The notes below the pieces were generated by a model. That model searched no databases. It was given only the letters and a program-made list of their open reading frames with translations, and was not told the origin of the DNA. Below are positions 1-57,202 of a DNA stretch of 64,000 bases, piece by piece; the first letter of the stretch is position 1; each line of letters starts with the position of its first letter. The position numbers were made by a program, and so were the translations under genes. This stretch comes from a virus: IMG/VR virus record IMGVR_UViG_3300024346_000010, one strand, 5' to 3'.

Positions 1-27
1 GATAATGATGTATTTAATACCGGAATT

Positions 28-333
28 ATGGTAGCTGGATCGGATGTTATTAAGAAGTTGGGTTACTTTAGAAATATCAGAGCCAATCTAGATTTTATGA
101 CCGAGCTTAAAGAAGATCCAGTTTCAATGTATCCTCACAACATTCAACGTGTATTTGGATATGATAATGAAACTCTGTTTTCATATTTGGTTCATTCAAA
201 GTCTATCGATATTCAATATCTCAACGGCCCTTGGCATTACATTATTGATGAAAAATTCGATAGTATGAAGCGAGCGGATCCTAGTGCTAAGATGTATCAC
301 TTCATTAATAAGAAAATGGAATGGGTTCTGTGA
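28..333 (+). CDS. C-terminal part of a probable glycosyltransferase-like protein, likely truncated by the window edge
   Basis: Frame is open from the window start (xNTGIM, ...DNET..., HFINK). These resemble C-terminal GT-A motifs. Adjacent to a GT-A gene. Confidence 0.4.
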   Translation: MVAGSDVIKKLGYFRNIRANLDFMTELKEDPVSMYPHNIQRVFGYDNETLFSYLVHSKSIDIQYLNGPWHYIIDEKFDSMKRADPSAKMYHFINKKMEWVL

Positions 334-1001
334 AGATATTCTGCGTAAGAATAGGAAACAAATATGGACCTGAGTACGAAGATTATATTAACTCAAAGCT
401 AAGCAAGCATGAGGTAACCTGGATTCGTGAGCCTTTTCACCCGCACGTTCCTTTGCAGTGGAATAAGCTTCAAGTGTTTAATATGGATATCTATGAACCC
501 GTAATTGTTATGGACATCGATAAACTGCTTATTAACGACTATGAGGACGTAATCAACTATCCATGCGAGAAGAATGAATTTGTTTCTATTCCATACTGGT
601 GGAATTTTAATGGCACCCCATTTAAGATGAGTGGTGGATTCTATAAGTTTTGGCCTTCAAGAACAAAACACATTTATCAAAAGTTTATGAGTGATATATC
701 TTATTATACAAACTACTATATCAAAGCTGGATTAACAAATGGTCCAGTGAATGGCGAGTTTATGTTCGTTCAAGACAGTCTATATGGAATGGATCTAAAA
801 CTCATGCCCGATGCTTGGTTTACCCGCTGGCTAAGTTCAGATGATAAAGAAATGTGCGCTAAACTAACTGATAGATATTATGAGGTTACTGGTAATGAAT
901 ACATCTATAATGGACAGTTTCATCCTGACTTAAAGATTGTTCACTTTACAAATAGTATGAACAAGCCGCATGAATGGAAAGATTATGACAGATTTATCTG
1001 A
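321..1001 (+). CDS. GT-A fold glycosyltransferase (GT8-like)
   Basis: N-terminal CVRIGNKYGPEY, WNKL, DxD motif (MDID) and C-terminal IVHFT...KPH. Confidence 0.7.
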   Translation: MGSVKIFCVRIGNKYGPEYEDYINSKLSKHEVTWIREPFHPHVPLQWNKLQVFNMDIYEPVIVMDIDKLLINDYEDVINYPCEKNEFVSIPYWWNFNGTPFKMSGGFYKFWPSRTKHIYQKFMSDISYYTNYYIKAGLTNGPVNGEFMFVQDSLYGMDLKLMPDAWFTRWLSSDDKEMCAKLTDRYYEVTGNEYIYNGQFHPDLKIVHFTNSMNKPHEWKDYDRFI

Positions 1002-1395
1002 TAATAAATTGGGCATAAAATGCCAATGGATGGAAATTAAACGCGCATTAATAAATCATGAAGGTCAAGTTTTTCCATGCTGTTACTTTGCTAATATAGA
1101 ATATACCATATCAATTTTGGGAGATGATCCGAATGTATGGGATATTGAGCACTACGGCATTTGGCGGAAGGGTGACTATGTTGCTAAAAAAAATTATAAA
1201 ACTTCTCTGCATGAATATATGGAAACTAAAGAAGACCATAATGTTTTTAACCATACGTTAGAAGAAATATTAAACAATGAATGGTTTACTAAAACCCTTC
1301 CAGAGTCTTGGAATGATGAAGATAAATGCCACAGATTATGCAAAAAGTTCTGTTCAGTAAAATCTGATCATAGAGTTGGTTTAAAAAATGAGTAG
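985..1395 (+). CDS. Stand-alone SPASM/twitch Fe-S domain protein
   Basis: C-x(n)-GQVFPCC ... LEEILNNEWF ... CxxxC, with no CxxxCxxC radical SAM motif. Start could be 970 or 985. Confidence 0.7.
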   Translation: MTDLSDNKLGIKCQWMEIKRALINHEGQVFPCCYFANIEYTISILGDDPNVWDIEHYGIWRKGDYVAKKNYKTSLHEYMETKEDHNVFNHTLEEILNNEWFTKTLPESWNDEDKCHRLCKKFCSVKSDHRVGLKNE

Positions 1396-2170
1396 CGGCA
1401 TTTCAAATTTTAATAAACATTATAGCAATAAAGAATCAGTGATATTTTTTGAACTGACAACCCACTGTAATGCGGGATGCCCACAATGCCATAGAACGAA
1501 TAGAGATGGTTTGGGAAAGGCAGAATGGATCCCATTAAAACAGTGGACATTAGATAAATTTAAAAAAGCATTTCCGCCAGAAACGTTAGATAATATTAAA
1601 TGCATGGAGTTTTGTGGAACGTGGGGTGATCCCATGATGTGCAAAGACGTATTTGAAATTACTGAATATATTTTAAATGAATCAAATGCAAATGTATTGT
1701 TCAATACCAATGGTAGCATTAGAAATCCAGATTGGTGGTGGAAATTTGGTTTATTAGGCAAAGATCGTATGACCGTTGTTTGGGCTATCGATGGTTCTAC
1801 TCAAGAAATGCATAACAAATATAGACAAAACACAAATTTAAGCTTAATTATGGAAAATATGCAATCATTCACTGCAGCTGGCGGCATAAGTGTAACATTT
1901 ACCATCGTGTTTAAACATAATCAAGCGCATTTATATGATATAGCAACTCTAGCAAAAAATAATGGCGCAGTGTCAGCAACATTTGTGCAATCAAATCGAT
2001 TCCGGGAGGGAGAGCCCCAATATCATTTTATAGATAGTAAAGGTGAAAGTGATTATTTAGAACAATCTTCGCTGAAAAATGACAGGGATTTTTATTGGCA
2101 AAATTTTAATTTAAATAATGAAGATGACATTAAAAAAATAAAACAAGAATCTAAAGATGGTATATCATGA
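1388..2170 (+). CDS. Radical SAM protein (core domain only)
   Basis: CNAGCPQC motif, GTWGDP, NTNG and AIDG. Confidence 0.9.
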   Translation: MSSGISNFNKHYSNKESVIFFELTTHCNAGCPQCHRTNRDGLGKAEWIPLKQWTLDKFKKAFPPETLDNIKCMEFCGTWGDPMMCKDVFEITEYILNESNANVLFNTNGSIRNPDWWWKFGLLGKDRMTVVWAIDGSTQEMHNKYRQNTNLSLIMENMQSFTAAGGISVTFTIVFKHNQAHLYDIATLAKNNGAVSATFVQSNRFREGEPQYHFIDSKGESDYLEQSSLKNDRDFYWQNFNLNNEDDIKKIKQESKDGIS

Positions 2171-2958
2171 GACTCATATCAGATGAACAATTTTATAACT
2201 ATGATGAGTTATATAATAAAAATGAGTTAAGTCTGTGGCTCGACATTTCTACACACTGTAATGCTAAATGTCCTCAATGCCATAGAACGGATGCTAATGG
2301 CTTACAAAAAGTCGATTGGTTACCTGTTATTCAATGGTCAACTGAAGAGTTTAAAAAAGCGTTTACTCCTAAAAACTTAAGCCATATCGACAGGATTGAT
2401 ATTTGTGGTACATGGGGAGATCCCATGATGAATAAAGATATATTTGAAATTGTAAAATATATCATGAATAATTCTAAATGTAAAATATTAATTAATACCA
2501 ATGGTAGTATTAGGAATGCTGATTGGTGGTGGAAATTTGGTTTATTAGGCAGAGAAAGAATCACCGTTATGTGGGCAATTGATGGTGTTACACAGGATCA
2601 GCATTCACTATATCGACAGGATACTAACTTACAGACAGTTCTAGATAATATGGAAACATTTACTGCTGCCGGAGGTATATCTCAAGTGTTTACCGTTGTG
2701 TTTAAACACAATGAAAAAGATATCTACAATCTAGCTTCATTGGTAAAAGAAAAAGGAGCGCAGGATATTTTTTACGTGCCTTCAAATAGATTTAAGAGAG
2801 ATTCTAATAAATTTGAATTTATCGATAAAGTGGGTGAACTTAAATTTTTAGAAAAATCTTCTTTAGATGAAACTAATTCCCCTGGACTTTTTTGGAAAAC
2901 TCTATTTCTAGAAGAAGAAGATAAAATGGAAGTGATACGTAATGCAACACCAAAATAA
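2167..2958 (+). CDS. Radical SAM protein (core domain only), paralog of 1388..2170
   Basis: CNAKCPQC motif and GTWGDP. Shares NTNGSIRNxDWWWKFGLLG with the upstream gene. Confidence 0.9.
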   Translation: MRLISDEQFYNYDELYNKNELSLWLDISTHCNAKCPQCHRTDANGLQKVDWLPVIQWSTEEFKKAFTPKNLSHIDRIDICGTWGDPMMNKDIFEIVKYIMNNSKCKILINTNGSIRNADWWWKFGLLGRERITVMWAIDGVTQDQHSLYRQDTNLQTVLDNMETFTAAGGISQVFTVVFKHNEKDIYNLASLVKEKGAQDIFYVPSNRFKRDSNKFEFIDKVGELKFLEKSSLDETNSPGLFWKTLFLEEEDKMEVIRNATPK

Positions 2959-3337
2959 ATGTAATATTAAATGTGAATGGATGCAGACAAAAAGGGTATT
3001 AGTAAATCCTGATGGACAAGTTTTGCCGTGTTGTTTTTTTGCTAATGTTATTTACATGTATGATAGAATGGGCGCACCGGAAGAATGGACTCCAAAGGCT
3101 GAATATGGTATTTCAGATCAATTAATGGATGTTCCAAGAGTCGCACACGAAACTAGCCAAGAAACAATTCTTATGGATTATTATAAAAATCGTGAAGAGT
3201 ATAACATATTCGATAATGACCTAGAAGATATTTTGAACAGTGATTGGTTTAAAAAAACATTACCTGAATCATGGGAAGATGAAAGTAAACTAGCCAGACA
3301 GTGCAAAACATATTGCCAAGTAAAAGATGAAGAGTAA
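2942..3337 (+). CDS. Stand-alone SPASM/twitch domain protein, paralog of 985..1395
   Basis: IKCEWM...GQVLPCC...WFKKTLPESW...CKTYC. Confidence 0.7.
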   Translation: MQHQNKCNIKCEWMQTKRVLVNPDGQVLPCCFFANVIYMYDRMGAPEEWTPKAEYGISDQLMDVPRVAHETSQETILMDYYKNREEYNIFDNDLEDILNSDWFKKTLPESWEDESKLARQCKTYCQVKDEE

Positions 3338-4490
3338 CTTTTGTATTATACCGTGGATCTCAATCACATCAGATAATGCTGGATTAGTAAGACCGTGTTG
3401 TAAGTTTGCTGAAAAAGATGTTCAAGGAGAATATCAAACACCTAGCCTTAAAGATTATTCGTATGAGGACATATGGAATGGTCCAGAAATGCAGGCAATT
3501 AGGCAAGCATTTTTAGATGATAAAAAGATTCCAGAGTGTTCCTCGTGCTGGAAAGAAGAAGCGGCTGGATTGACCAGCTATAGAAACCAATATAACTACA
3601 CCTTTCTTCGACAAATTGATCCAAAAGACTATTCTACAACCTATGCTGAACCACCTAGAGTTGTAGATTTAAAACTTAGTAATGTGTGTAATTTTAAATG
3701 CCGTATGTGTGATTTTTCATACAGCAGTCTCATACTAAAAGAAGATAAAGCATTTAGAGGTTATGATATACCAGATGAATCATATTACCTTTCTAATAAA
3801 ATATTAAATACTGAAAATGAAGATTACTTCTTTGAAAAAATAGTTCCGAATCTTATTCAGATCGAGTTTACTGGTGGCGAACCATTTGTAAGTCCCGAAG
3901 CTAGGAAGCTAATTGATATATTATCACAATCAGAATATGCTAAAAATATTGCAATCAATATAACAACAAATGGTAGTAAAGTAAATACATCAATCTTAAG
4001 CCAACTAGAGAAATTTAAATTTGTTAGAATCGGATTAAGTGTTGACGATATTGGCTCTAGAGCGGAATACCAAAGGAAAGGTACTGTTTGGGAAACTGTA
4101 AGTCATAATTGCAAACTCTTTAATGATAACCAAAAGTTTTATGTAAATCTACATCCAACAGTAAACAACTATAGCATATGGAACTTTGATAAAACTTTGG
4201 AATGGGCAAAAGAAAACAACATAAGGGTTGTTACAAATATTTTACATGGGCCTGAACGATTGTGCATAAAAAATCTTAGTGCGTATAGTAAGTCTAAGGT
4301 TTATGAGAAACATAAAGATAATAAATCTATGGTTAACATTCTTTCATATATGATGCAAGATGGCGAGGATCTTACTGAAGATTTTATTCAAGAAACCACA
4401 TTGGTAGATAGTATTAGAAATGAAAGCTTTAAGGAAGTTTTTCCTGATTGGAGTGAGATAATTTATGGCTCTTTGCAAAGCCCCAGTTAA
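3327..4490 (+). CDS. Radical SAM protein with N-terminal SPASM/twitch domain
   Basis: FCIIPW...RPCC...CSSC, then CNFKCRMC, GGEP and TNG. Confidence 0.9.
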   Translation: MKSNFCIIPWISITSDNAGLVRPCCKFAEKDVQGEYQTPSLKDYSYEDIWNGPEMQAIRQAFLDDKKIPECSSCWKEEAAGLTSYRNQYNYTFLRQIDPKDYSTTYAEPPRVVDLKLSNVCNFKCRMCDFSYSSLILKEDKAFRGYDIPDESYYLSNKILNTENEDYFFEKIVPNLIQIEFTGGEPFVSPEARKLIDILSQSEYAKNIAINITTNGSKVNTSILSQLEKFKFVRIGLSVDDIGSRAEYQRKGTVWETVSHNCKLFNDNQKFYVNLHPTVNNYSIWNFDKTLEWAKENNIRVVTNILHGPERLCIKNLSAYSKSKVYEKHKDNKSMVNILSYMMQDGEDLTEDFIQETTLVDSIRNESFKEVFPDWSEIIYGSLQSPS

Positions 4491-5466
4491 CAATATGTAC
4501 TTTACTGTCCATGGAACGGTAGCGCCGTGCTGGTTAACGGTGGGAGCTATTGATCGTTGGAGCCCTACTCATTCTATAAGCGATATTTGGTTTGGTGAAA
4601 AATACCAACAGATTAGAGACAATATTGCTAACGATATTTTTAAAGGTAAATGTGCTGAGTGTAAAAAAGATATTGATAATGGTGTTTGGCCATTAGCTAA
4701 AGCATACGACCAATTTACAGTAAAAAAATATCCAAGCCTGATGGAACTTGAGTTAAGTAATCAATGTAATCTCGAATGTGTAATGTGTTCTGGAACTTTA
4801 AGTTCTGGTATTCGCAAGAACCGTGATAAGCTTCCGCCTCTTCCACAAATTTATACAGATGAATTTAGACAACAGCTTAGGGAGTTTATTCCTCATCTCG
4901 AAGAGCTACGATTTAATGGTGGTGAACCATTTGCACAAAAGATTGTTCTTGATATTTGTGAAGACGTTGCAGAACTAAATCCTGGTCTAAAAGTAAACAT
5001 TGCTACAAATGGTACAGTGTACAATAAGCGTGTTCAAAAAATTATGGATATGTGCAACATTCATATTAATATTTCTATCGACAGTCTCTTACACGACCGC
5101 TATAGCGAAATCAGAATTAATGGTGACCTGTCAGTCCTTATGAAGAACTTTGAAATCTTTAATAAATATTGTAAAGATGGAAATCGAGACTTGTCTATCA
5201 TGGTTAACCCAATGAGACAAAATTGGGATGAAATGGTAGAATTTGTTAAATGGACCGATAAACATCATGTGAAGTTGTGGTATAATACTATTCGTTATCC
5301 TGCCGATTGCGCTATATGGAATTTGCCGTCGGAAAAGTTAAAGGAGATTCATACTAGTCTTCAGGCAGAACTTGATAGCATTCCGATGACAACCTATAAT
5401 TATGATAAAGCTGATCATTTGATCAATAGACAGATAGCCAATTGGTTATTAGAAAGTTATGAGTAG
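4465..5466 (+). CDS. Radical SAM protein with N-terminal SPASM/twitch domain
   Basis: LCKAP...APCW...CAEC, then CNLECVMC, GGEP and TNG. Confidence 0.9.
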   Translation: MALCKAPVNNMYFTVHGTVAPCWLTVGAIDRWSPTHSISDIWFGEKYQQIRDNIANDIFKGKCAECKKDIDNGVWPLAKAYDQFTVKKYPSLMELELSNQCNLECVMCSGTLSSGIRKNRDKLPPLPQIYTDEFRQQLREFIPHLEELRFNGGEPFAQKIVLDICEDVAELNPGLKVNIATNGTVYNKRVQKIMDMCNIHINISIDSLLHDRYSEIRINGDLSVLMKNFEIFNKYCKDGNRDLSIMVNPMRQNWDEMVEFVKWTDKHHVKLWYNTIRYPADCAIWNLPSEKLKEIHTSLQAELDSIPMTTYNYDKADHLINRQIANWLLESYE

Positions 5467-5508
5467 TATACCTCTCCTCCCCCAGAAGTGATACTTCTAT
5501 TATACACA
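5464..5508. repeat. Dispersed 45-nt non-coding repeat, copy 1 (copy 2 at 29019..29063)
   Basis: tagtatacctctcctcccccagaagtgatacttctattatacaca; 42/45 identical to copy 2. Confidence 0.9.
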
Positions 5509-5526
5509 GATTTTTAGGATTGTAAA
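5499..5526 (-). promoter_or_regulatory. Sigma70-type promoter on the minus strand, firing into the repeat
   Basis: Reverse complement reads TTTACA-N16-TATAAT. Confidence 0.7.
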
Positions 5527-5532
5527 CAGAAA

Positions 5533-6621
5533 ATGTTATGTCATGCGCCATTTTTAGGAATTACCGTAGATCCATCTGGATTATTGACATTATGCTGTGC
5601 AACAAGTGATAGGGAATATTTTAAAACACATATAGATGATGTAGATGATTTACAAGAATTCTTTTTGGGTGACAAGTATACTCATGTCAGAAATATTATG
5701 AAATCCGAAGGTATAAAAAAACTTCCTCAGTGTTTGCACTGCTGGAAAGCTATAGATGGATATTGGACAGAAATTAATAATTATAATGAGAAACAAATAC
5801 ATGATACGCTTCAAGTTTCATATCTAGAATTAACCACAAGCAACACATGTAATCAAACATGCGTCACATGTTCCAGTTATTTTAGCTCTAAGTGGAGAAA
5901 GATAGAATCTAAATTTGACAGACAGATTCACTCATCATTTCAATTATCAGATTCGGCTATTGATAAAGTTATTAAAGTCTTACCTGGATTGAAATATCTT
6001 CAAATTAAAGGCGGGGAACCGTTTGCTGATAAAAATAATCTTAAAATTTTAAAAGCGCTATCTAAAGTAAATCCTAAATGCGAAGTTATTATAACAAGCA
6101 ATTTTCAAAGAATATCCGATGAATGGTATGAAGTGTTAAAACTTCTTCCAAATATAAAGGCTGGCGCTAGTATTGATGGTATAGATAAAACTTATGACTG
6201 GATCCGAGGAGGGTCATTTGAAGATACTATACAAAACTTAGAGAATTTCTATAAAAAAACTGGAAATAAAGTTGTTATAAATGTATGCGTTTCTTTGTAT
6301 AACATATTTCTTTTATCTGATATATTAGATTATTTTAAAAATAAAGAATATGTTTCAGTCACAATATTCAATAATATCTTAAACTACCCCAATGAACAAT
6401 CAATACAATCTTTAGATCCTTTAACTTTGAAAAAAATAGCATTTTCTGAACTTCCTTTTTGGCATAACGACTTTGAAAATATAAGAAAAGTAGAATCATT
6501 TCCAGAAGATATTAGATTAGGTCTGACAAATAAGTTTATATCACATACGGAAATAATGAATTCAATTAGAGGTTTTAATATTTTCGATATTCAACCTAAA
6601 TTAGCTAATATTTATAAATAA
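5533..6621 (+). CDS. Radical SAM protein with N-terminal SPASM/twitch domain
   Basis: LCHAPF...LCC...CLHC, then CNQTCVTC, GGEP and SIDG. Confidence 0.9.
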   Translation: MLCHAPFLGITVDPSGLLTLCCATSDREYFKTHIDDVDDLQEFFLGDKYTHVRNIMKSEGIKKLPQCLHCWKAIDGYWTEINNYNEKQIHDTLQVSYLELTTSNTCNQTCVTCSSYFSSKWRKIESKFDRQIHSSFQLSDSAIDKVIKVLPGLKYLQIKGGEPFADKNNLKILKALSKVNPKCEVIITSNFQRISDEWYEVLKLLPNIKAGASIDGIDKTYDWIRGGSFEDTIQNLENFYKKTGNKVVINVCVSLYNIFLLSDILDYFKNKEYVSVTIFNNILNYPNEQSIQSLDPLTLKKIAFSELPFWHNDFENIRKVESFPEDIRLGLTNKFISHTEIMNSIRGFNIFDIQPKLANIYK

Positions 6622-6635
6622 AACTCCTATAAATA
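6613..6635 (+). promoter_or_regulatory. Two T4-type late promoters (TATAAATA)
   Basis: Exact TATAAATA at 6613-6620 and 6628-6635, upstream of structural genes. Confidence 0.8.
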
Positions 6636-6669
6636 AGACTAACACAAACTATTAACGGCGGATAACATT

Positions 6670-7005
6670 ATGGCAATCTATGCAAATCTTACAGTAGACC
6701 AAGGGTCTGAATTCGAAGCGTCTGTAGATGTTATAGATGGCGATGGTAATGCCGTTGACCTGTCGACATTCACATACCACGGACAGATAAGAAAAACCTA
6801 TAACTCCCTTACTGCAGTAGATTTTACTGTAGAATTGGATGTATCACAGCTATATACTTTAAATATTTCTTTATCCGCAGCACAATCGAATGCGATGAAA
6901 GCTGGAAGATATGTTTACGATGTAGAAGTTGTCAGCCCATCCGGAACAGTTACTAGAGTTATTGAAGGCCAAGTTGAATTAACCCCAAGCGTGACTAGAA
7001 TCTGA
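6670..7005 (+). CDS. Virion structural protein, BppU-N/Ig-like
   Basis: ANLTVDQG...GRYVYDVEV...TRVIEG...PSVTR pattern common in T4-like tail regions; late promoter upstream. Confidence 0.6.
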   Translation: MAIYANLTVDQGSEFEASVDVIDGDGNAVDLSTFTYHGQIRKTYNSLTAVDFTVELDVSQLYTLNISLSAAQSNAMKAGRYVYDVEVVSPSGTVTRVIEGQVELTPSVTRI

Positions 7006-8396: not shown

Positions 8397-9785
8397 ATGG
8401 CCGTTTTACAAAGACATAAGAATACCATCTACGGACTGGTAACAGACCTAGCCCAAATCACTACAAGTGTTACTAATGAAGCAACTGCTCGCGCAGCTGC
8501 TGACGTCGTATTACAGGGTAACATCGATGCAGAAGCCACCCGCGCAACTGCTGCAGAAGGTGTAAATGCTACTGCAATCACCAATGAAGCAACAGCTCGT
8601 GCGGCTGCCGATACTACACTTCAGTCAAACATCACTGCAGAAGCCACCCGCGCGACTGCGGCAGAAGGCGTAAATGCTGCTGCAATTACCGCTGAAGCTT
8701 CTACCGCACGTGCCGCTGAAGCTGCAAATGCCTCTGCAATTACTGCCGAGACTACTCGTGCAACTGCTGCTGAAGGTGTCAATGCAACAGCAATCTCAAC
8801 AGAAACAGCTGCTCGTATTGCTGGTGATACCGCTGCTCAGTCATATGCTGACGGCATTCTTGCTGCCTTCGAAGCAGGTGACTTCCAGACACTTGAAGAC
8901 TTAGTTGCAGTAATCAACTCTGATTCATCTACAGTTGGTTCGTTCCGTAAAGAGATCGCAGACATCATCGATTCTGCACCAGAAGCTCTTAACACACTCA
9001 ACGAAATTGCTACTTACATCAACGTAAATGGCACTGGCGATGACGTTCTTACAGCTATCACTAACAGCGTAACTGCAGCTAAAGCAGAAATTCGCGGTGA
9101 AGTTACTGCTGCATACGATACGCTTGCTGAAGTTGAAGATGCACTTGATATCATTAACGGTTCTGGTGTAGGTTCTATTGCTAAAGTTGCAGCTGACTTC
9201 GCAGCAGCTGATACAACACTGCAGTCCAACATTACTGCAGAAGCAACAGCTCGTGCTGCCGCAGACGTTACATTGCAGTCCAACATCGGTGCAGAAGCAA
9301 CTACTCGTGCTGCCGGCGACGTTACATTGCAGGGCAATATCGATGCAGAAGCAACAGCGCGTGCTGCTGCAGATACTACACTTCAGTCTAACATTACTGC
9401 AGAAGCTACAGCTCGTACGAATGCTGATGAAACACTCACAACTGGCTTAGGTAACCTTTCCGGTGTTACTGATGCTGGTACTGCTCGTACAAACCTTGCT
9501 GTTTACAGTAAAACAGAAATGGATGCGGCGCTGCTCCTTGCCGGTGCAAGATTCATCACTGAGATCCTTACGGTCACAGCCGATGCAATCACGTTGACAC
9601 ATGCTCCTAAAGATGGTGTATTGTTCAACTTCGGTACAGTACGTCACACAGATGCTAACTTTGTATCTTACGACATTCCTGCAACAGTTGGTGGATCTGC
9701 CACTGTATACAACCTTGCCCCGAACGCTTCTGGCGACTTCGACGGTAAAGCAGTTGTTGTACAGTACGCATACACACCTGCATAA
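8397..9785 (+). CDS. Ala/Thr-rich coiled-coil fibre protein
   Basis: Many 18-aa EATARAAADxTLQxNI repeats, APEALNTLNEIA motif, ARTNLxVYSK; SD aggag. Confidence 0.75.
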   Translation: MAVLQRHKNTIYGLVTDLAQITTSVTNEATARAAADVVLQGNIDAEATRATAAEGVNATAITNEATARAAADTTLQSNITAEATRATAAEGVNAAAITAEASTARAAEAANASAITAETTRATAAEGVNATAISTETAARIAGDTAAQSYADGILAAFEAGDFQTLEDLVAVINSDSSTVGSFRKEIADIIDSAPEALNTLNEIATYINVNGTGDDVLTAITNSVTAAKAEIRGEVTAAYDTLAEVEDALDIINGSGVGSIAKVAADFAAADTTLQSNITAEATARAAADVTLQSNIGAEATTRAAGDVTLQGNIDAEATARAAADTTLQSNITAEATARTNADETLTTGLGNLSGVTDAGTARTNLAVYSKTEMDAALLLAGARFITEILTVTADAITLTHAPKDGVLFNFGTVRHTDANFVSYDIPATVGGSATVYNLAPNASGDFDGKAVVVQYAYTPA

Positions 9786-9793
9786 TTGAAGCA

Positions 9794-9821
9794 TTATCAG
9801 GGGGCTTAGGTCCCCTGATAA
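9794..9821. terminator. Stem-loop, probable terminator or processing site
   Basis: ttatcagggg-N8-cccctgataa. Confidence 0.6.
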
Positions 9822-9861
9822 CTCATTGATGAATACCGATGAGGTTAAATAGGATTATAAA

Positions 9862-10176
9862 ATGGCTATAGTAAAAAGACAGGCAGATGTTCAATTAACA
9901 CAGTTGACAACAGGCGCGCCTGTGGAGTATGATACGTTTGCAGAAGTAGCTACAGCACTTTCAAATATTGTGTCAAAACTCGATCTGATTACTGTTACGT
10001 CCGATATAAACCTTGATAATATTAACCTTGATAATCTTACGGAGGCACTTAGCGCAGGTACTGTAGAAGATTTTGAAATAGCTTTGGTTACAGCAGCTTC
10101 TGAATTACCTGATGGGACATTCTCGCTAACCAATATTGGCGACATCGATGATTTTGAAATGTCTTTAATTAACTAA
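9862..10176 (+). CDS. Acidic fibre-associated protein
   Basis: APVEYDTFAEVA motif shared with neighbouring fibre genes. Confidence 0.55.
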   Translation: MAIVKRQADVQLTQLTTGAPVEYDTFAEVATALSNIVSKLDLITVTSDINLDNINLDNLTEALSAGTVEDFEIALVTAASELPDGTFSLTNIGDIDDFEMSLIN

Positions 10177-10187
10177 GGAAAGAAAAA

Positions 10188-10712
10188 ATGGCAGTTATTT
10201 TATACAAAGGCCCAAACAAGACTGTTGCTACCATAGCAGCTAGAAATGCAATTGCAGTTAAACATGACAGTATGGTTGTTACCGTACTTGATGCAATAGC
10301 AGATCCTGCCGCCGGTGCTGGGATTGCAACGTTTCGTTGGGTAGAATCCACATCGGCATGGATTTTAGTTTCAAAGTCTGGTGTCGAAAGTATTAACTTT
10401 GAAACAGAAGAGTTACTAATCTCTAACGGATCGGTAACACCTTCAAACGTTGCTATAAGCGGCAATTACTGGAATATAGTAGTTGTTAATGGCGATGTTA
10501 TTCAGGCAGAACTCAAACTAGAAAATCTCACATCAAATCTAAATAGCATTTCGGGACTAGATGATTACAATGGTTTATCTTTAAGAGTAACGTATGCTTA
10601 CGGTACAGTAGGTCAACAGGTAACTGACTATGTTGATTTTAAAGCAGCGGAAATCCAAGCAAACCTTGACGGCTTTTCAGGTACCGTCGCAGAATTTGAG
10701 GCAGAACTATAA
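10188..10712 (+). CDS. Fibre-associated structural protein
   Basis: VATIAARNAI...VLDAIADP motif; beta-rich domain resembles the C-termini of 7641 and 8397. Confidence 0.55.
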   Translation: MAVILYKGPNKTVATIAARNAIAVKHDSMVVTVLDAIADPAAGAGIATFRWVESTSAWILVSKSGVESINFETEELLISNGSVTPSNVAISGNYWNIVVVNGDVIQAELKLENLTSNLNSISGLDDYNGLSLRVTYAYGTVGQQVTDYVDFKAAEIQANLDGFSGTVAEFEAEL

Positions 10713-11650
10713 TGGTAAATTTAGCACAACGAATTGGTCAAGAATTTAAAAGTGTTCGTGATAACGAAATCACAAATCTCCAGGCAGCAGATGTTACCCT
10801 TCAAGGTAATATTGATACCGAAGCTTCTACAAGAGCAACTGCAGACTCCACACTACAGGCCAACATTGTTGCAGCAGAAGCAGCAGCAATTGCAACAGCA
10901 GCAGCAGATGCAACTTCAAAAGCAAATGCAGCCGAAGCAGCAGCTACAGCAGCAGCAGCAACAGACGCAACTTCAAAAGCAAATGCAGCAGTAGCAGCGG
11001 CAAACAGCAACACAGGGGATCGCGAATCAGCTATCACCACAGCATACCAGACTTACGCAGACGCGGCAGAAGCAGCTGCGAATACGTATGCAGACGGTGC
11101 CGTTGCGACTGAAGCTAGCGCTCGCGCTGCTGCAGATACCGCATTGCAGAACAGCATAGATGCTGAAAATGCAAGAATTGATGCTATCCTCAATGCCTCT
11201 ACTGCTGATAAAGACACCTTTGCAGAAATCGTTTCATTCATCAATGCAGTTGATACAACAAATGATACAGCTCTAGGTACTGAAATTACTACAAGAGCAG
11301 CTGCAGATACTACTCTTCAAGGTAATATTGATGCTGAAGCTAGTGCAAGAGCATCCGCTGATACTACGCTGCAAAATAACATCAACACTGAAGCTAGTGC
11401 AAGAGCATCCGCTGATACTACGCTGCAAAATAATATCAACGCGAAGCTCGCAGCATCTCACGATATGACTTTGACTTTGTCTGGTGATGTTTCTGGATCT
11501 GCAACATTTACTAATATGGCTGATGCCACTCTTAGTGTTGCACTAGGCGCAAATACTGTAACGTCAAGTGAACTATCTGGTGCTACTTCTCTTGTAATTT
11601 ATAACTCTGCTGGTACTGCATTAAAAACTCTGTTCGGCGCAGGATCATAA
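10712..11650 (+). CDS. Ala-rich coiled-coil fibre protein
   Basis: EASARAxADTTLQ repeats, DATSKANAA repeats, DTFAEI and LSGDVSGSATF. Confidence 0.75.
   Translation: MVNLAQRIGQEFKSVRDNEITNLQAADVTLQGNIDTEASTRATADSTLQANIVAAEAAAIATAAADATSKANAAEAAATAAAATDATSKANAAVAAANSNTGDRESAITTAYQTYADAAEAAANTYADGAVATEASARAAADTALQNSIDAENARIDAILNASTADKDTFAEIVSFINAVDTTNDTALGTEITTRAAADTTLQGNIDAEASARASADTTLQNNINTEASARASADTTLQNNINAKLAASHDMTLTLSGDVSGSATFTNMADATLSVALGANTVTSSELSGATSLVIYNSAGTALKTLFGAGS
11334..11433 (+). repeat. Tandem direct repeat with 54-nt period inside the fibre gene
   Basis: ctgaagctagtgcaagagcatccgctgatactacgctgcaaaataa at 11334 and 11388 (46 identical nt). Confidence 0.85.
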
Positions 11651-22288: not shown

Positions 22289-23605
22289 ATGGAAACATAT
22301 GATCGTTTAACAGAGAAATGGGCTCCAGTTCTCAACGAAGGCGCAGACATCAAAGATGCTCACCGTCGTGCCGTAACGGCTGTTGTTCTTGAGAACCAAG
22401 AAAAAGAGTTTGCTTCACAAGCTGCTCAAAACAACATGCTCACAGAAGCTGCTCCAGGCAACAACACTGGTTCAGCGTCTAACTGGAACCCAGTTCTTAT
22501 CTCACTTGTTCGCCGCGCTATGCCGAACATGATGGCGTATGACGTTGCTGGTGTTCAGCCGATGACTGGCCCAACAGGCTTGATCTTCGCAATGAAATCA
22601 CGCTACGGTGCTGGTTCAACTGGTTCGACTGAAGCTCTCTTCAACGAAGCAAACACAGCATTCTCAGGTGACTCATCTGTAACACAAACTGGCGGTCCAT
22701 CAGGTCTTGCTGGTCTTACAGACGCTGGCGCAGATAGCTCGATCGACAACGACCGTACAGGTCCATCGGTTGCTTCTGGTATGCCAACTGCAGATGCTGA
22801 AGCACTTGGTTCAACAGGTGGTTCGTCTTTCAATGAAATGGGTTTCACCATCGAAAAAGCGACCGTGACTGCGAAATCACGCGCGTTGAAAGCTGAGTAC
22901 AGCCTTGAGCTTGCACAAGACCTTAAAGCGATTCACGGTCTTGACGCTGAAACAGAGCTTGCGAACATCCTTTCAACTGAGATCCTTGCGGAAATCAACC
23001 GTGAAGTTATTCGCACAATCAATAGCCAAGCTAAGACTGGTGCTTCTACTGCAAACACAGCAATCAACGGTATCTTTGACCTTTCAACAGATGCTGATGG
23101 TCGTTGGAGCGTAGAGAAGATCAAAGGTCTTATTCTTCAGCTCGAGCGTGAAGCGAACGTAATCGCAAAAGAAACACGTCGTGGTAAAGGTAACTTTGCT
23201 ATCGTGTCTTCAGACGTAGCTTCTGCACTTGCAGCTTCAGGTATGCTTGACTATGCTCCTGCAATGTCAACTGCTCTTAACGTAGACGACACAGGCAACA
23301 CATTCGCTGGTGTACTTAACGGTCGCATGAAGATCTACATCGACCCATATGCTGCTACAGACTACATCAACGTTGGTTATAAGGGCACAAACCCATATGA
23401 CGCCGGTGTGTTCTACTGCCCATATGTACCGCTTACAATGGTTCGCGCCGTTTCTGAGGACACGTTCCAGCCTAAAATTGGTTTCAAGACACGCTACGGC
23501 ATGGCTTCTAACCCATTCGTTGGTTCAACTCCTGCTGATGGTCTTGCAACTGCTAAGACTAACCAGTACTACAGAATCTTCCGCGTGGATAATATCCTGG
23601 CGTAA
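22289..23605 (+). CDS. gp23: Major capsid protein gp23
   Basis: GVQPMTGPTGLIFA, KSRALKAEY, ELAQDLKAIHGLDAE, FQPKIGFKTRYG. Confidence 0.98.
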   Translation: METYDRLTEKWAPVLNEGADIKDAHRRAVTAVVLENQEKEFASQAAQNNMLTEAAPGNNTGSASNWNPVLISLVRRAMPNMMAYDVAGVQPMTGPTGLIFAMKSRYGAGSTGSTEALFNEANTAFSGDSSVTQTGGPSGLAGLTDAGADSSIDNDRTGPSVASGMPTADAEALGSTGGSSFNEMGFTIEKATVTAKSRALKAEYSLELAQDLKAIHGLDAETELANILSTEILAEINREVIRTINSQAKTGASTANTAINGIFDLSTDADGRWSVEKIKGLILQLEREANVIAKETRRGKGNFAIVSSDVASALAASGMLDYAPAMSTALNVDDTGNTFAGVLNGRMKIYIDPYAATDYINVGYKGTNPYDAGVFYCPYVPLTMVRAVSEDTFQPKIGFKTRYGMASNPFVGSTPADGLATAKTNQYYRIFRVDNILA

Positions 23606-23612: not shown

Positions 23613-23640
23613 AAAAAAGGGAGGGGAACCAACCCCTCCC
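23613..23640 (-). terminator. Rho-independent terminator for the minus-strand cassette
   Basis: A6 followed by gggagggg-aaccaa-cccctccc, i.e. hairpin plus U-tract on the minus strand. Confidence 0.7.
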
Positions 23641-23645
23641 AACTT

Positions 23646-23677
23646 AAGGAGCACTGGAGGACGGTGCTCCTTTTTTT
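23646..23677 (+). terminator. Rho-independent terminator after gp23
   Basis: ggagcactg-loop-cggtgctcc followed by T7. Confidence 0.85.
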
Positions 23678-25310: not shown

Positions 25311-25757
25311 ATGAAATACCTTGAACCAGTTATTACTATGTGGGAAAAAGACTGTATTATCAATAATGCGTCATTAGATGAGGCATCTAGGCAGACACCT
25401 ATGCTTCATGCAAAATACCTTCCCATGCACGCTGAAGCTAAAATGATGCTTCGTCGAGCACAAATGTCGCAAAAAACTCTATTGAAAGACAAGTGGCTTT
25501 ACTATAACGGTAAAATGACTAAAGAAGAAATTGAAGCTAAAGGCTGGGAATTTGATCCGTTTAAAGGACTTAAAGTTCTTAAAGGGGAAATGGATTACTA
25601 CTATGATGCTGATACTGATATTCAGAAATCAGAAGACGAAATTCAGCAATTAAAAGTGTTAGTAGAGACACTACAGGAAATTGTAGATAATATAAAATGG
25701 CGCCACCAAACCATAGGTAATATGATTAAGTGGCGCATGTTTGAAGCTGGGGGTTAA
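25311..25757 (+). CDS. uvsY: Recombination mediator UvsY
   Basis: WEKDC.I...P.LHAKYL...KWLYY.GK...D.D...I.NMI.WR.FEAG. Confidence 0.88.
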   Translation: MKYLEPVITMWEKDCIINNASLDEASRQTPMLHAKYLPMHAEAKMMLRRAQMSQKTLLKDKWLYYNGKMTKEEIEAKGWEFDPFKGLKVLKGEMDYYYDADTDIQKSEDEIQQLKVLVETLQEIVDNIKWRHQTIGNMIKWRMFEAGG

Positions 25758-26122
25758 ACCTGTTCCGCAAAATAATACTTACTTAAGTACTCGTGGTTTT
25801 GCTGTAGGTTTGCGTAGTTTACACAACTAGAATATTCATACCACTGATCAAAACTTTCCCAAGTTCTGGTAACAGTGTATTCTTTTGTCACATCATCAAA
25901 AGATTCAGTTTTATTACTTCTGGCTGCAATGAAGCCGGCCTCTTTTTCATTCCAACCAGGGATATTGGCAGCTCTTAACAGTTCGATATAATAATCTTCA
26001 CCCCTTTCGCCATTAGCGCCCTGTTGTAATACATGTGCTTTGAACTCTTCTATAGTCGAGTGGGGAATTTCATCCACATACTGGGGTTTGATTCTAAATA
26101 TTTTAGTTACGGCATAAGTCAT
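25754..26122 (-). CDS. Hypothetical protein, late-expressed
   Basis: SD aaggag; TATAAATA on the minus strand at 26140-26147. Confidence 0.7.
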   Translation of the reverse strand: MTYAVTKIFRIKPQYVDEIPHSTIEEFKAHVLQQGANGERGEDYYIELLRAANIPGWNEKEAGFIAARSNKTESFDDVTKEYTVTRTWESFDQWYEYSSCVNYANLQQNHEYLSKYYFAEQV

Positions 26123-26142: not shown

Positions 26143-27030
26143 TTATAGTCTTTGCAAATCTAATGTTACGCAGTGGTGACCACCCATAAACATTTTTGCA
26201 TGCGGCAAATTAACGCCTATTGTTTCTATTCCATATTTATCAAATTTTTTTCTTAGAATGGTCTGATTAGAATCGCAGAATATAGTATTTTCATCATAGC
26301 TTAAAACATTCATTCCTATCCAATTACTAGTCATATGATCCCAACCCTTCGGTTGAATCAAGTCTTCTTGTTTTATCCAAATCTTATCCCAAGATTTCAT
26401 AAAATCTGGTAACTGATATTCTTTAATTCTTTCTGAATTTAACATGACTAAACCATCTCTAAGAGGAACTATAGTACTATCTAGATGCATTCCCTGATAT
26501 ACTGCATTTAGTCGATGCACAATATATTCTGGTCCCAAATAATTTTCTAGCCAATCCGCTCCAGCTTCATTTCCAGAATAGCTTATTAGATATAAAATAT
26601 CCTTTCCGCATCTAATTATATTGGCAGCATCAAATACTGCCGCTGGATCATCAACAGTTGTGACATTGTCTCCTAAAGCAGCGCGGATCGCTTTCCATTC
26701 AATTCGGCGATTTGGCCATACAGTAGGCGTAAGAATTACTTTATCGCCAATAACTAATGTGGTATCTCTAGGGCAATAACATCCAAAACCGTCTTCTTTT
26801 ACATAATCAATAGGCTTTGGTCTAATAACCTCTACTCCTAATTTTTCTAATTCAGCTTGAAATAAATTTAAAGCTTCTTGAGTTTCATGTATGGCGATTG
26901 GAGACGCAGGACCAATAGGTGCCTCATCCCAAGTAGAGTATTCTGGATCATTTTTTGGAAAATTAAAATTTTCGGCTGAACCAAGTATTACTCTTTTTAA
27001 CCGTGACCATTCGTTATCGCTACGGATCAT
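26143..27030 (-). CDS. Amidinotransferase (glycine/inosamine-phosphate amidinotransferase family)
   Basis: NEWSRLKRVILG, CPRD, FDAAN, HLDST and C-terminal GGHHCVTLDLQR with catalytic Cys; SD before ATG 27030. Confidence 0.88.
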   Translation of the reverse strand: MIRSDNEWSRLKRVILGSAENFNFPKNDPEYSTWDEAPIGPASPIAIHETQEALNLFQAELEKLGVEVIRPKPIDYVKEDGFGCYCPRDTTLVIGDKVILTPTVWPNRRIEWKAIRAALGDNVTTVDDPAAVFDAANIIRCGKDILYLISYSGNEAGADWLENYLGPEYIVHRLNAVYQGMHLDSTIVPLRDGLVMLNSERIKEYQLPDFMKSWDKIWIKQEDLIQPKGWDHMTSNWIGMNVLSYDENTIFCDSNQTILRKKFDKYGIETIGVNLPHAKMFMGGHHCVTLDLQRL

Positions 27031-27086
27031 ATTATCTCCTATTTCCAACATATATATCTATGAATATAATTTAATAGAGTATTGTT

Positions 27087-28589
27087 ATGGAAATCATTAA
27101 AGTTAAAAATAAAAACCACTCTTTTATGGAAATTACCTGCGATTATGGTATTGCCAATGAGCTTACTGATTTCTTTTCATTTTTTGTGCCTGGCTATAAA
27201 TTTATGCCGGCGTACAAAAATAAAGTCTGGGACGGTAAGATCCGACTATTTAATATTCATAAAATGGAACTACCTGTTGGATTATTTCCATTCTTAGCTG
27301 AATTCTCCAAACCTAGAAAATATACTATTGAAGTAGAACATAATAATTTTTATGGTCGACCGGATAGTCAAATAGATATTGATCCAAATGAAATTAAAGC
27401 ATTTGTTGATAGACTAGAGTTACAATCAAGAGGTAAACCAATTGAAATACGAGACTACCAATTTGACGCAGTTTGCGAAGGACTCCACAGAAAAAGAGCA
27501 GTACTTATTTCACCAACGGGCTCTGGCAAGTCTCTTATCATCTACACACTCGTCCAAAGATATTTACTTTCTCTTAGGAAGGCAAACAGGAAAGTCTTGG
27601 TTATTGTACCAACGACTTCGCTGGTTGAGCAAATGTATAACGACTTCGCAGATTATGGAATGCCTGTCGAAGACTGCGTCCACAGGATTTATTCTGGACG
27701 AGATAAAGAGACCGATAAAGAAATTATCATTTCAACCTGGCAGTCAATTTACAAACTGCCACCGAAATGGTTTGAACAATTCGGTGCTGTCATTGGTGAC
27801 GAATGTCATGGCTTTAAATCAAAGTCTCTCACCACTATTATGGATAAATGCAAAGAAGCCGAATATCGTTGGGGAACAACAGGTACACTTGACGGTTCTC
27901 AAACCCATGAACTCGTATTACAAGGGCTTTTTGGGAAGATATATAATGTAACAACAACAAAGAAACTTCAAGATGAAGATACACTTGCTAAACTCAAGAT
28001 CTCTATACTTTTACTCAAATATGATGAAGAGATCCGTCGAAATTGGGGTAAACAAGATTATCAAGCTGAACTGGATTTCATTGTTCGAAACGAGTCTCGT
28101 AATAAGCTCATTTCTAATCTCGCTTTGGATCTTGATGGCAATACTCTCGTACTATTTAATTTTGTAGAAAAACATGGTAAACCTTTGTTTGAAATGATTC
28201 GAGACAAAGCCCATGAAAACAGAAAAATCTTTTTTGTATCTGGTGAAACCGCCACGAGTGACCGTGAAGCAATTCGTAAGATCGTAGAAGGACAAAAGAA
28301 TGCTATCATTGTTGCTAGTCTTGGCACTTTCTCCACTGGGATTAATATTAGGAATTTGCATAATATCGTATTTGCATCCCCATCCAAGTCTCAAATCAGA
28401 GTTCTCCAATCAATTGGACGAGGACTCAGAAAATCAGACGACGGATCTATAGCACAACTTTACGATATTGCTGATGACTTACATTGGGGACATAGGAAGA
28501 ATTACACATTAGAACACTCAGCAGAACGTGTTAAGATGTATGCTAAACAAGAATTTGACTACAAAATTTACGAGATAGATATAAAGTAA
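27087..28589 (+). CDS. uvsW: SF2 DNA/RNA helicase UvsW
   Basis: PTGSGKS, DECH, TGT, QSIGRGLR; synteny. Confidence 0.95.
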   Translation: MEIIKVKNKNHSFMEITCDYGIANELTDFFSFFVPGYKFMPAYKNKVWDGKIRLFNIHKMELPVGLFPFLAEFSKPRKYTIEVEHNNFYGRPDSQIDIDPNEIKAFVDRLELQSRGKPIEIRDYQFDAVCEGLHRKRAVLISPTGSGKSLIIYTLVQRYLLSLRKANRKVLVIVPTTSLVEQMYNDFADYGMPVEDCVHRIYSGRDKETDKEIIISTWQSIYKLPPKWFEQFGAVIGDECHGFKSKSLTTIMDKCKEAEYRWGTTGTLDGSQTHELVLQGLFGKIYNVTTTKKLQDEDTLAKLKISILLLKYDEEIRRNWGKQDYQAELDFIVRNESRNKLISNLALDLDGNTLVLFNFVEKHGKPLFEMIRDKAHENRKIFFVSGETATSDREAIRKIVEGQKNAIIVASLGTFSTGINIRNLHNIVFASPSKSQIRVLQSIGRGLRKSDDGSIAQLYDIADDLHWGHRKNYTLEHSAERVKMYAKQEFDYKIYEIDIK

Positions 28590-28607: not shown

Positions 28608-29018
28608 ATGGTAGCTAACGTAAAACAAATGAAGCTTATCACTGGAGAAGAAATTCTTTGCGATTTGACTGAAGCTTTATACGATGAGGAAGATGGAATT
28701 GAGCATACGTTACTTCTCAGATCAGCTTATACATTAGTATCCCACGAAGATTTTGAGAATCAAATAAGGTATTATACCTTTAAACCTTTCATGATGCATT
28801 TGTATGAGCCAAATAAAGTATTAGCTCTTAATGCACATTCAGTTATTTGTATGGTTCAGCCGGATAAAAAAGTGATTGATCAGTATGATGAACATATTTC
28901 ACAGTTTAATTTCGATGAAAGCGCTGAAGAAGACGAAGATCCATTAGCGGTACCGGAAGATGATGAACCGACGAATAATAAAGTCCTAAAGTTTAAGCCA
29001 AAGGATAAGCTGCATTAA
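28608..29018 (+). CDS. T4-like hypothetical protein (possible Sm-like fold)
   Basis: KLITGEEILC N-terminus; located between uvsW and gp55. Confidence 0.6.
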   Translation: MVANVKQMKLITGEEILCDLTEALYDEEDGIEHTLLLRSAYTLVSHEDFENQIRYYTFKPFMMHLYEPNKVLALNAHSVICMVQPDKKVIDQYDEHISQFNFDESAEEDEDPLAVPEDDEPTNNKVLKFKPKDKLH

Positions 29019-29063
29019 TAGTATACTTCTCCTCCCCCAGAAGTATTACTTCTATTATACACA
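29019..29063. repeat. Dispersed 45-nt non-coding repeat, copy 2
   Basis: tagtatacttctcctcccccagaagtattacttctattatacaca; minus-strand TGTACA-N16-TATAAT at 29054-29081. Confidence 0.9.
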
Positions 29064-29114
29064 CATTACCAGATATGTACACATAAAAATGCGCATATCA
29101 TTAAAATAATTTGA

Positions 29115-29143
29115 TTTACTTACCCTAAGAGCTGATGTATAAT
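29115..29143 (+). promoter_or_regulatory. Sigma70-type promoter of gp55
   Basis: TTTACT-N17-TATAAT. Confidence 0.75.
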
Positions 29144-29168
29144 CAGTAATATATGCTAGGAATATAAT

Positions 29169-29774
29169 ATGAAACCTAAAGATAGACCACACTACGTTAA
29201 TAATAAAGAGTTTTCACTTGCAGTCGTTGACTATGTCAAGAGTGTAACTGAAGCAAAGGAAGCTGGAACAGAGATTCCGAAGGTGACTAACTACATTGCA
29301 CAGTCATTTCTACGAATAGCTGAAGGACTTTCACACAGGGCAAATTTCATCAGATACACATACCGAGATGAGATGGTAATGGATGCTGTTGAAAATTGTC
29401 TTAAAGCAATTAATAACTATAATATTGATGCACCTACACGCACGGGTATGCCTAATGCGTTTTCCTATTTTACACAAATTTCTTGGTATGCTTTCTTGCA
29501 TCGTATTGCAAAGGAAAAGAAGCAACAAGATATTAAGATGAAATACATTTCACAATCCCCATTTGAAGACTTTGCAGTTGAAGGCGCTGATGAAGCCAGT
29601 ATTCAAGCAGGGCATGCTTTCATCGATCAGCTAAAAGGCAAGATTGATCAGTTGAAAGAAAAAGATACTTACTTTGATGTGAAGTATAAAGAAGAGGCCA
29701 AAGCAGCAAAGTTGCGCAAAAAGCGCGTGGTGAGCTCTAACGACTCTGATCTTAGCACCATTTTTGGAGACTAA
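29169..29774 (+). CDS. gp55: Late-transcription sigma factor gp55
   Basis: HYVNNKEF...IAEGLS...NF..YTYR.EM..DA.ENC...NAFSYFTQI...AF..RI.KEKKQ. Confidence 0.95.
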   Translation: MKPKDRPHYVNNKEFSLAVVDYVKSVTEAKEAGTEIPKVTNYIAQSFLRIAEGLSHRANFIRYTYRDEMVMDAVENCLKAINNYNIDAPTRTGMPNAFSYFTQISWYAFLHRIAKEKKQQDIKMKYISQSPFEDFAVEGADEASIQAGHAFIDQLKGKIDQLKEKDTYFDVKYKEEAKAAKLRKKRVVSSNDSDLSTIFGD

Positions 29775-57133: not shown

Positions 57134-57169
57134 TTTAAAAGTCACAGTATTAAAACTATAATATAGGGG

Positions 57170-57198: not shown

Positions 57199-57202
57199 AT
57201 AA

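Follow-up and report, generated by a model that had tools for sequence, protein, structure and literature searches.

A duplicated, gene-less element with a predicted early promoter that points against the genes of a T4-like phage

In the available portion of its description (PMC2839356), the PeSL cassette combines a sigma70 promoter and an A+T-rich upstream region with a stem-loop, which in one subclass lies just past the -10 hexamer, and a Shine-Dalgarno (SD) sequence at the 3' end; such cassettes are known from the T4-type phages RB49/phi1, PST and nt-1 (PMC2839356 and PMC4122927, likewise in part). Here we analyze a duplicated element of similar build in a 64,000-nucleotide (nt) stretch of DNA, hereafter the window, which spans positions 892–64891 of a 114,213-bp IMG/VR virus contig (38% G+C) from a T4-like phage that carries almost every gene on the plus strand. 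Each of the two copies reads, on the minus strand, as an early promoter followed by an inverted repeat and a G-rich tract. Judged by its sequence, the architecture of the element is closest to that of the PeSL cassettes of T4-type coliphages.

The likeness extends to an early sigma70-type promoter (TTTACA-16-TATAAT and TGTACA-16-TATAAT here), a stem-loop at the promoter (here a 6-bp stem and a 3-nt loop directly past the -10), an SD or SD-like sequence at the 3' end, repetition in the genome, variable gene content at the site, and the potential of repeated copies to recombine. As for the A+T-rich upstream region, the 50 nt above the -35 hexamer are 74% A+T at copy 2 (92nd percentile) and 62% A+T at copy 1, where they are coding. 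By contrast with PeSLs, the element has no start codon or gene behind it, points against the direction of the genome, and occurs twice in 114 kb rather than dozens of times in hyperplastic ORFan-flanking regions. Moreover, one copy lies between core genes and is kept in position across a family-level clade, and the leader is far more G-rich than real ribosome sites.

Three other systems invite comparison. The T4 origin oriE has iterons, and G-rich primer-forming transcripts include ColE1 RNA II and that of mitochondrial CSB II. According to the available portion of PMC3016281, T4 oriF (uvsY) and oriG (34) depend on a middle promoter of the MotA type together with an unwinding element rich in A+T, oriE uses an early promoter with "different sequence elements", and ColE1 and mitochondrial transcripts prime replication. 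The element resembles the T4 origins in that a transcript, not a protein, is its possible output, in its uvsY/uvsW neighbors and, for oriE, in an early-mode promoter. It differs from oriF and oriG in having an early promoter and in that no unwinding element of their kind was found, and from oriE in having no iterons near either copy. With ColE1 RNA II and CSB II it shares a promoter that precedes G-rich RNA over a C-rich template, but its tract is SD-ordered and lies ~10–25 nt from the predicted start. Lastly, CfrI of cyanophage S-PM2, the sole antisense RNA described in the available portion of PMC2984593, is an RNA of ~225 nt antisense to psbA and to a homing endonuclease gene. Like CfrI, the transcript predicted here would come from a marine T4-like phage and be antisense to its protein-coding genes; unlike CfrI, which is a defined RNA, it lies at another locus and has no predictable 3' end.

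Sequence and parts of the element

The two copies lie 23.5 kb apart and match at 42 of 45 positions (5464–5508 against 29019–29063). The three differences fall at 5472 (C/T) and at 5490–5491 (GA/AT), the latter two being in the hairpin loop. The parts are as follows.

5521–5526, minus strand: copy 1 -35 hexamer TTTACA, the same as in seven of the nine plus-strand T[TG]TAC[AT]-N16/17-TATAAT promoters
5499–5504, minus strand: copy 1 -10 hexamer TATAAT, 16 nt past the -35
5484–5498, minus strand: copy 1 inverted repeat AGAAGT-ATC-ACTTCT, directly past the -10
5471–5483, minus strand: copy 1 purine tract GGGGGAGGAGAGG, with 10 G in the best 14-nt window
5464–5471, minus strand: copy 1 GTATACTA, whose complement includes the TAG stop of the plus-strand open reading frame (ORF) 4465–5466
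29076–29081, minus strand: copy 2 -35 hexamer TGTACA
29054–29059, minus strand: copy 2 -10 hexamer TATAAT, 16 nt past the -35
29039–29053, minus strand: copy 2 inverted repeat AGAAGT-AAT-ACTTCT
29026–29038, minus strand: copy 2 purine tract GGGGGAGGAGAAG, with 9 G in the best 14-nt window
29019–29026, minus strand: copy 2 GTATACTA, adjoining the TAA stop (29016–29018) of the plus-strand ORF 28608–29018

A repeat search of the window widened the pair to 75 nt at 81% identity (5459–5533 and 29014–29088). When a 36-nt degenerate pattern was allowed up to three mismatches, it matched the window at two sites only and matched in 0/100 shuffles; a 32-nt pattern returned two forward and no reverse sites in the whole 114,213-bp contig, and its backward-read control returned none. 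A chance repeat was therefore rejected. The 16-nt spacers of the two copies disagree at about half of their positions and the -35 hexamers at one base. The shared 13-nt purine tract reads GGGGGAGGAGA(G/A)G, then comes GTATACTA, and then the complement of a stop codon (TAG at 5464–5466 for copy 1, TAA at 29016–29018 for copy 2). Behind the tract, copy 2 has one ATG frame of only 9 codons; at copy 1, the first start codon lies 57 nt downstream and opens a frame of 8 codons. An earlier note, made from the letters of the window, had described the near-identity of the two stretches, the minus-strand order of -35, N16, TATAAT, AGAAGT-NNN-ACTTCT and purine tract, the fall of two of the three differences into the loop, the position of each copy against a plus-strand stop codon and pointing into that gene, and the lack of an ORF past the SD-like tract. 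All of these descriptions were borne out.

The predicted promoters look like those that the phage uses for its own early genes. The pattern T[TG]TAC[AT]-N16/17-TATAAT occurs at nine plus-strand sites in the contig, eight of them just ahead of gene starts, and at two minus-strand sites, which are the two copies; with TTTACA taken as the -35 consensus of the clade, the copy 1 promoter scores 12/12. A third minus-strand promoter match, at 64775–64802, was rejected as coding sequence with no G tract. An SD followed by GTATAC(T/C) and ATG is also found in real early leaders, namely AGGAGTATACTATG at 25304, GGGTAGTATACTATG at 63336 and GGGACAGTATACCATG at 90493. By sequence, the element is the putative promoter, SD and spacer of an early gene, without the gene.

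Counted by bases, the G-rich tract exceeds an ordinary ribosome site. Among 169 strong plus-strand promoters in seven genomes, the best 14-nt window held at least 8 G in five and at least 9 G in two, against 10 and 9 G in the two copies. Likewise, the best window held on average 7.1 G at 62 gp55-junction elements, as against an average of 3.9 G in the gp55 leaders at those loci, and the G tract named by the earlier note is supported as a real feature. For a closer view of the leaders, 43 distinct ones were picked by eye from 40 loci with a clear promoter and tract, C48C1, S-SSM4, strain L003 and both copies. L008 and L054 were excluded as duplicates, and the set is also without L022, L035, L044, L047, L051, L053, L056, L058, L059, L068, L070, L071, L077 and L084. 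SD cores (GGAG, GAGG, AGGA) were found in 35/43 leaders, as against 18.1 ± 3.0 in composition-matched shuffles (maximum 27 in 500 shuffles), and a perfect stem of 5 bp or more, beginning no more than 4 nt from the -10, was found in 12/43 leaders (9/40 without this phage), as against 0.85% of shuffles; since the set is without a clade that has a C-rich block (described below), both counts lean to the G-rich, SD-like type.

On these counts the hairpin appears recurrent, not universal, and the idea that it is a general feature of the element did not hold. The stems vary in sequence (AAAGC/GCTTT, AAGGC/GCCTT, CATAGA/TCTATG, CTAAG/CTTAG), and similar AACnC...GnGTT pairing was seen by eye in cyanophage leaders. 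The 6-bp stem is identical in copy 1, copy 2 and strain L003, and the loop has three variants. As the hairpin lies directly past the -10 and spans the expected transcription start, a minus-strand RNA with the usual start would lose the 5' arm. An alternative hairpin, ACUUCU-GGGGGAGG-AGARGU, is possible in this lineage only and was for that reason rejected as a feature of the class. The thermodynamic folding signal was weak, with minus-strand z-scores of -0.26 (copy 1) and -2.50 (copy 2) and plus-strand z-scores of +1.47 and -2.77, respectively.

Plus-strand readings of the element were also considered; two were rejected and a third was not supported. A sigma70 promoter is contradicted by TCCTCC at the -35 position of TATTAT (5498–5503), and a late promoter by the lack of TATAAATA in either copy. 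As an intrinsic terminator, the element would offer a 6-bp A+T-rich stem followed by AUUAUA, with no U run, and no terminator was predicted at either site; the absence of the hairpin from 31/43 leaders was counted against this reading as well.

Conservation beside gp55 and constraint on copy 1

To place copy 2 among its relatives, the DNA upstream of gp55 was examined in 80 contigs with gp55 relatives (57–73% identity). The promoter score was the best minus-strand score out of 12 within 350 nt upstream of gp55, and counts were made on the 76 of these 80 loci whose sequence upstream of gp55 is 360 nt or longer. A score of at least 11/12 was found in 47/76 loci, 31 of them at 12/12, as against 13/380 shuffles of the same DNA and 12/284 minus-strand control windows inside downstream genes. 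Five cultured Kyanoviridae, C48C1, S-SSM4, S-RIM2, S-SSM7 and S-CAM1, were among the named phages at 11/12, and P-RSM6 scored 10/12. T2 does not keep the element (best score 8/12 upstream of gp55), and the intergenic region of Vibrio phage K491, at only 8 nt, has no room for it. The earlier note had let its claim depend on conservation in relatives, and such conservation was found.

Most contigs share a common minus-strand layout: promoter, short leader, G-rich tract, (G)TATAC and the complement of a stop codon. A position profile anchored on the -10 drew on 47 loci (45 distinct), each scoring 11 or more and having 460 nt or more upstream. It shows conserved -35 and -10 hexamers, a frequent T-G immediately ahead of the -10 (an extended -10) and an A+T-rich upstream region, with C+G at or below ~0.2 at -33 to -37 and at -40 to -47, except -41. 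G reaches a frequency of 0.5–0.7 at +14 to +25 and gives way to the A+T-rich TATAC block; the A+T-rich stretch past the tract covers only ~20 positions (+26 to +45).

No minus-strand gene is annotated across the 21 kb upstream of the gp55 junction in C48C1, and the promoter is therefore truly gene-less there. Frames behind the tract were surveyed in 42 loci, which were the 40 hand-picked ones plus the duplicates L008 and L054, without C48C1, S-SSM4, L003 and both copies. They are 1–64 codons long and mutually unrelated, with two exceptions: the 299-codon frame of L009, which is a real gene, and a frame of 138 codons in L045, which looks spurious and resembles the antisense strand of a true gene. 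A conserved small antisense ORF was rejected because the frames are short and unrelated. By sequence, copy 2 belongs to a conserved class of gene-less, backward-pointing candidate early promoters beside gp55 in marine T4-like phages.

A clade of five contigs (L053, L059, L077, L068 and L084) has a C-rich block in place of the G-rich tract; it keeps the backward TTGACA-17-TATAAT promoter, and the block reads CCGCCCCCCGC or CGCCCCCGCC. Gene content at the gp55 junction also varies. The 136-aa (amino acid) gene beside copy 2 is one example, a plus-strand ORF reads through the element in L016/L026, and relatives whose element sits 260–310 nt upstream have extra small plus-strand genes. Separately, G005 (~68700) and G006 (~6765), with gp55 on the plus strand, share a second, conserved minus-strand site, TTGACA-17-TATACT, with the leader GATGCTCT... 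~12 kb upstream of the gp55 junction. This site has no G tract and may be conserved coding sequence.

Copy 2 has core genes on both sides (the uvsW block and gp55), and copy 1 is flanked by two radical SAM/SPASM genes in an accessory island. Relatives of the radical SAM gene downstream of copy 1 were found in only 10 contigs, most of them 31–47% identical, and two of these relatives have the element at that junction: a close strain (L004/L087) and L088 (contig G001). In G001, the radical SAM protein is 47% identical and gp55 is 75% identical. This contig has gene-less minus-strand promoters at both junctions, and its two copies share the design while being about two-thirds alike by eye. When seven long contigs were scanned for G-rich, gene-less minus-strand promoters, they were found at both junctions in G000 and G001 and at the gp55 junction only in G004, G005, G006 and G008. 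Two exact-pattern scans of viral contigs returned only the two contigs of a close strain. By its distribution, copy 1 is a lineage-specific second site.

Upon comparison of strains, copy 1 proved 63/63 identical where the genes on its two sides had diverged to 91.7% and 92.5% identity, and copy 2 was 60/63 identical. Because copy 1 is unchanged despite its diverged flanks, it is judged to be under constraint, and the suggestion of the earlier note that the element is under selection gains from this comparison. The spacers are orthologous to those of G001 (copy 1 reads ATCCTA... and copy 2 ...GTAAT... in both genomes). The -10 and leader, unlike the spacers, are nearly identical between the two sites within this genome. 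Orthologous spacers together with homogenized leaders indicate that, since the lineage separated from G001, the two sites have undergone gene conversion or selection has favored one shared leader; judged from these sequences, gene conversion between the sites best accounts for how nearly identical the leaders are.

Possible functions

The genes and promoters that enter the readings below are these.

27087–28589, plus strand: UvsW helicase gene (PF21241 UvsW_N, ResIII, Helicase_C), next in the path of predicted copy 2 transcription
28608–29018, plus strand: gene for a 136-aa protein of the phrog_431/471 family, whose relatives keep a K-L-H C-terminus; predicted target of copy 2
29169–29774, plus strand: gene for the late sigma factor gp55, with its ATG at 29169
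30523–31587, plus strand: gp47 gene
4465–5466, plus strand: radical SAM/SPASM gene, predicted target of copy 1
5533–6621, plus strand: radical SAM gene that starts 7 nt past the -35 of copy 1
29115–29143, plus strand: divergent early-type gp55 promoter, TTTACT-N17-TATAAT
26143–27051, minus strand: amidinotransferase-like gene, named from a GGHHC motif alone, beyond uvsW from copy 2

We tentatively favor the view that each copy is a unit of early antisense transcription, devoid of an ORF, whose effects in cis fall on the genes upstream of it and on read-through, a reading that we consider plausible but short of probable. Host sigma70 polymerase would read the strong promoter at the start of infection, and transcription would run backwards from copy 2 into the 136-aa gene and uvsW, and from copy 1 into the island of radical SAM and glycosyltransferase genes. 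While host-type promoters are active, convergent transcription and antisense RNA would hold down or cut off the upstream genes, and rightward read-through would be stopped at the module border; shut-off of the early promoters would then release the brake. The SD-like tract may load 30S subunits or otherwise shield the 5' end of the untranslated RNA. Both predicted promoters do sit opposite coding genes, as cis-antisense action requires. Moreover, the enrichment of SD cores and a GTATAC like that of real early genes favor a cassette of promoter plus ribosome site over a pure R-loop G-cluster. The small RNA, antisense RNA or anti-SD sponge proposed by the earlier note keeps one part of its case, the minus-strand promoter without a gene, and loses another, as we found no terminator, Rfam family or conserved body. 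No Rfam family reached its gathering score over the element, and only a tmRNA was found in the scan. With no terminator, no Rfam match and an unconserved body, any function would come from transcription itself or from the initial ~35 nt.

Several observations weigh against this favored view. No minus-strand terminator was found downstream of either copy, and hence no defined RNA can be named. The antisense body is not specially conserved, since between strains the 136-aa gene is 90.8% identical and uvsW 97.5%. Ahead of uvsW here lies a weak, sigma70-like promoter, and a TATAAATA late promoter is missing (T4 uvsW, by contrast, is late), so that an "anti-late" logic is not established for copy 2. 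Among the gp55 loci, a minus-strand promoter of 11 or more is missing from 29/76, and G007 lacks one of that score altogether. The C-rich clade fits neither ribosome loading nor G-rich RNA, and the hairpin and SD-core counts come from a set without that clade. Finally, the promoter activity of both copies is a prediction from sequence.

An origin of replication offers another account of the same features. The G-rich RNA made from the early promoter would stay on its C-rich template and prime the leading strand, giving two origins, and would seed an R-loop right beside the gene for UvsW, the eraser of such loops. The strong promoter with no gene behind it, the clade-wide conservation of the element, and a non-template strand that is G-rich from ~+9 to +25, far above real leaders, all suit this account. 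So do the neighbors: copy 2 adjoins uvsW (in C48C1, uvsY-uvsW), and the available portion of PMC3016281 places T4 oriF within uvsY, has UvsW remove origin R-loops and describes oriE as early-promoter-dependent. An A+T-rich unwinding element, on the other hand, is not apparent, as the 50 nt past the tract are 70% A+T at copy 1 (82nd percentile) and 66% at copy 2 (65th percentile) in a genome that averages 62%, with its 90th percentile at 72%. A repeat search of the window showed no iterons or direct repeats near either copy. Cumulative GC skew has no switch, although here it is dominated by gene orientation and climbs monotonically, which makes it uninformative as an origin test. The tract, furthermore, is SD-ordered and not just G-rich, it is C-rich in the clade of five relatives, and the leaders of cyanophages show just a mild purine richness. 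A sigma70 hexamer, not one of the MotA-dependent middle-mode type, stands at the -35; the contig, estimated to be 67% complete, gave no MotA_activ or AsiA Pfam match, and neither did the control genomes. The R-loop origin of the earlier note is compatible with the G-rich tract, the lack of a gene and the place beside uvsW, but no feature specific to an origin was found, and we regard it as unlikely. Its fuller form, in which the gp55-side promoter is a conserved early origin of marine T4-like phages (the Kyanoviridae and relatives that infect heterotrophs) and the radical SAM island holds a second origin, with the leaders kept identical by gene conversion, is in our judgment doubtful.

The element may alternatively be a mobile cassette of the PeSL type with a mainly recombinational role, marking points at which accessory genes are inserted and exchanged; here it would have been left without a gene, and the two copies would be a footprint of recombination between cassettes. 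Its parts fit the available portion of the description in PMC2839356 (sigma70 promoter, stem-loop, 3'-terminal SD and, in the clade profile and at copy 2, A+T-rich DNA upstream), relatives differ in gene content at the gp55 junction, and copy 1 sits in the accessory radical SAM island, of which 10 loci were recovered. The homogenization of leaders within the genome, next to spacers orthologous to those of G001, is the sole and indirect sign of such recombination. Two copies per genome are, however, few beside the dozens in RB49/phi1, copy 2 lies between core genes, and recombination of the direct copies would delete 23.5 kb with capsid, tail and terminase-type genes. Most lineages lack a start codon and a gene behind it, and still their hexamers hold to the consensus across large distances, a point in favor of the promoter as such being functional; a mainly recombinational cassette seems rather improbable to us. 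Very improbable, in our view, is a long-range promoter, an account that concerns copy 2 only and has a 2-kb antisense run reach the amidinotransferase-like gene (26143–27051) and ORF 25754–26122. It draws on a homologous gene directly behind the equivalent promoter in L009 and L010 (50% and 49% identical), on the same split arrangement in L008 as in the window, and on the lack of a strong minus-strand promoter between 29081 and 27051 (best 9/12). Against it, C48C1 keeps the promoter with no annotated minus-strand gene for 21 kb, and ORF 25754–26122 is served by its own late promoter, TATAAATA, at 26147. Nor does a credible minus-strand gene follow copy 1: the only minus-strand frame of at least 100 aa in 1–5499 is a 113-aa, TTG-start frame at 1420–1761, inside the plus-strand ORF 1388–2170. 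The homologues of the amidinotransferase-like gene lie at 516–1415 in L009 (minus strand, 299 aa) and at 18–908 in L008 (minus strand, beyond uvsW), and that of L010 seems to start with ATA, not ATG.

Genomic setting and significance

By gp55, the nearest named relative of the phage is Phage C48C1 (Kyanoviridae) at 60% identity, and cyanomyoviruses come next at ~45%; megablast of 4400–6700 against named phages gave no match. At the gp55 junction, the intergenic region 29082–29168 is 87/87 identical in strain L003. An 8-bp palindrome, ATGCGCAT at 29089–29096, lies between the two divergent promoters and is a possible site for a regulator; in relatives, motifs of the AAAACGCA type and a G-run occur immediately ahead of the -35. 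The weak promoter upstream of uvsW reads TTTCCA-17-TATAAT at 27042–27070 (plus strand), with the leader TTAATAGAG. Elsewhere in the window, strong intrinsic terminators stand back to back, one per strand, at 23619–23672 after ORF 22289–23605, and the phage therefore uses canonical terminators at other places, such as the one at 23646–23672. Two fibre-like genes have long arrays of 54-nt (18-aa) repeats of the EATARAAAD..LQ.NI type (8450–11450). A two-piece, permuted alpha-type tmRNA was found at 57167–57593 on the plus strand (RF01849, 93.4 bits; RF04321, 97.8 bits), which hints at an alphaproteobacterial host.

The available portion of PMC2984593 gives no experimentally determined origin in marine T4-like phages and a single theta origin predicted for Syn9. 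We found no literature description of an element of this kind, in a search that left most subscription journals and supplementary tables of transcription start sites outside, where it may be listed. The cultured carriers S-SSM4, S-RIM2, S-SSM7 and S-CAM1 make the element easy to test. A strong, gene-less promoter that is found at one junction in cyanophages and phages of heterotrophs alike must matter in some way: it could act as a brake that times the repair and virion-decoration genes, insulate one module from the next, or prime replication. The duplicate shows that the element can be copied to a new site and remain constrained there, and the concerted evolution of the leader within the genome suggests that the initial ~35 nt, as transcript or as DNA, act in a way that depends on their sequence.

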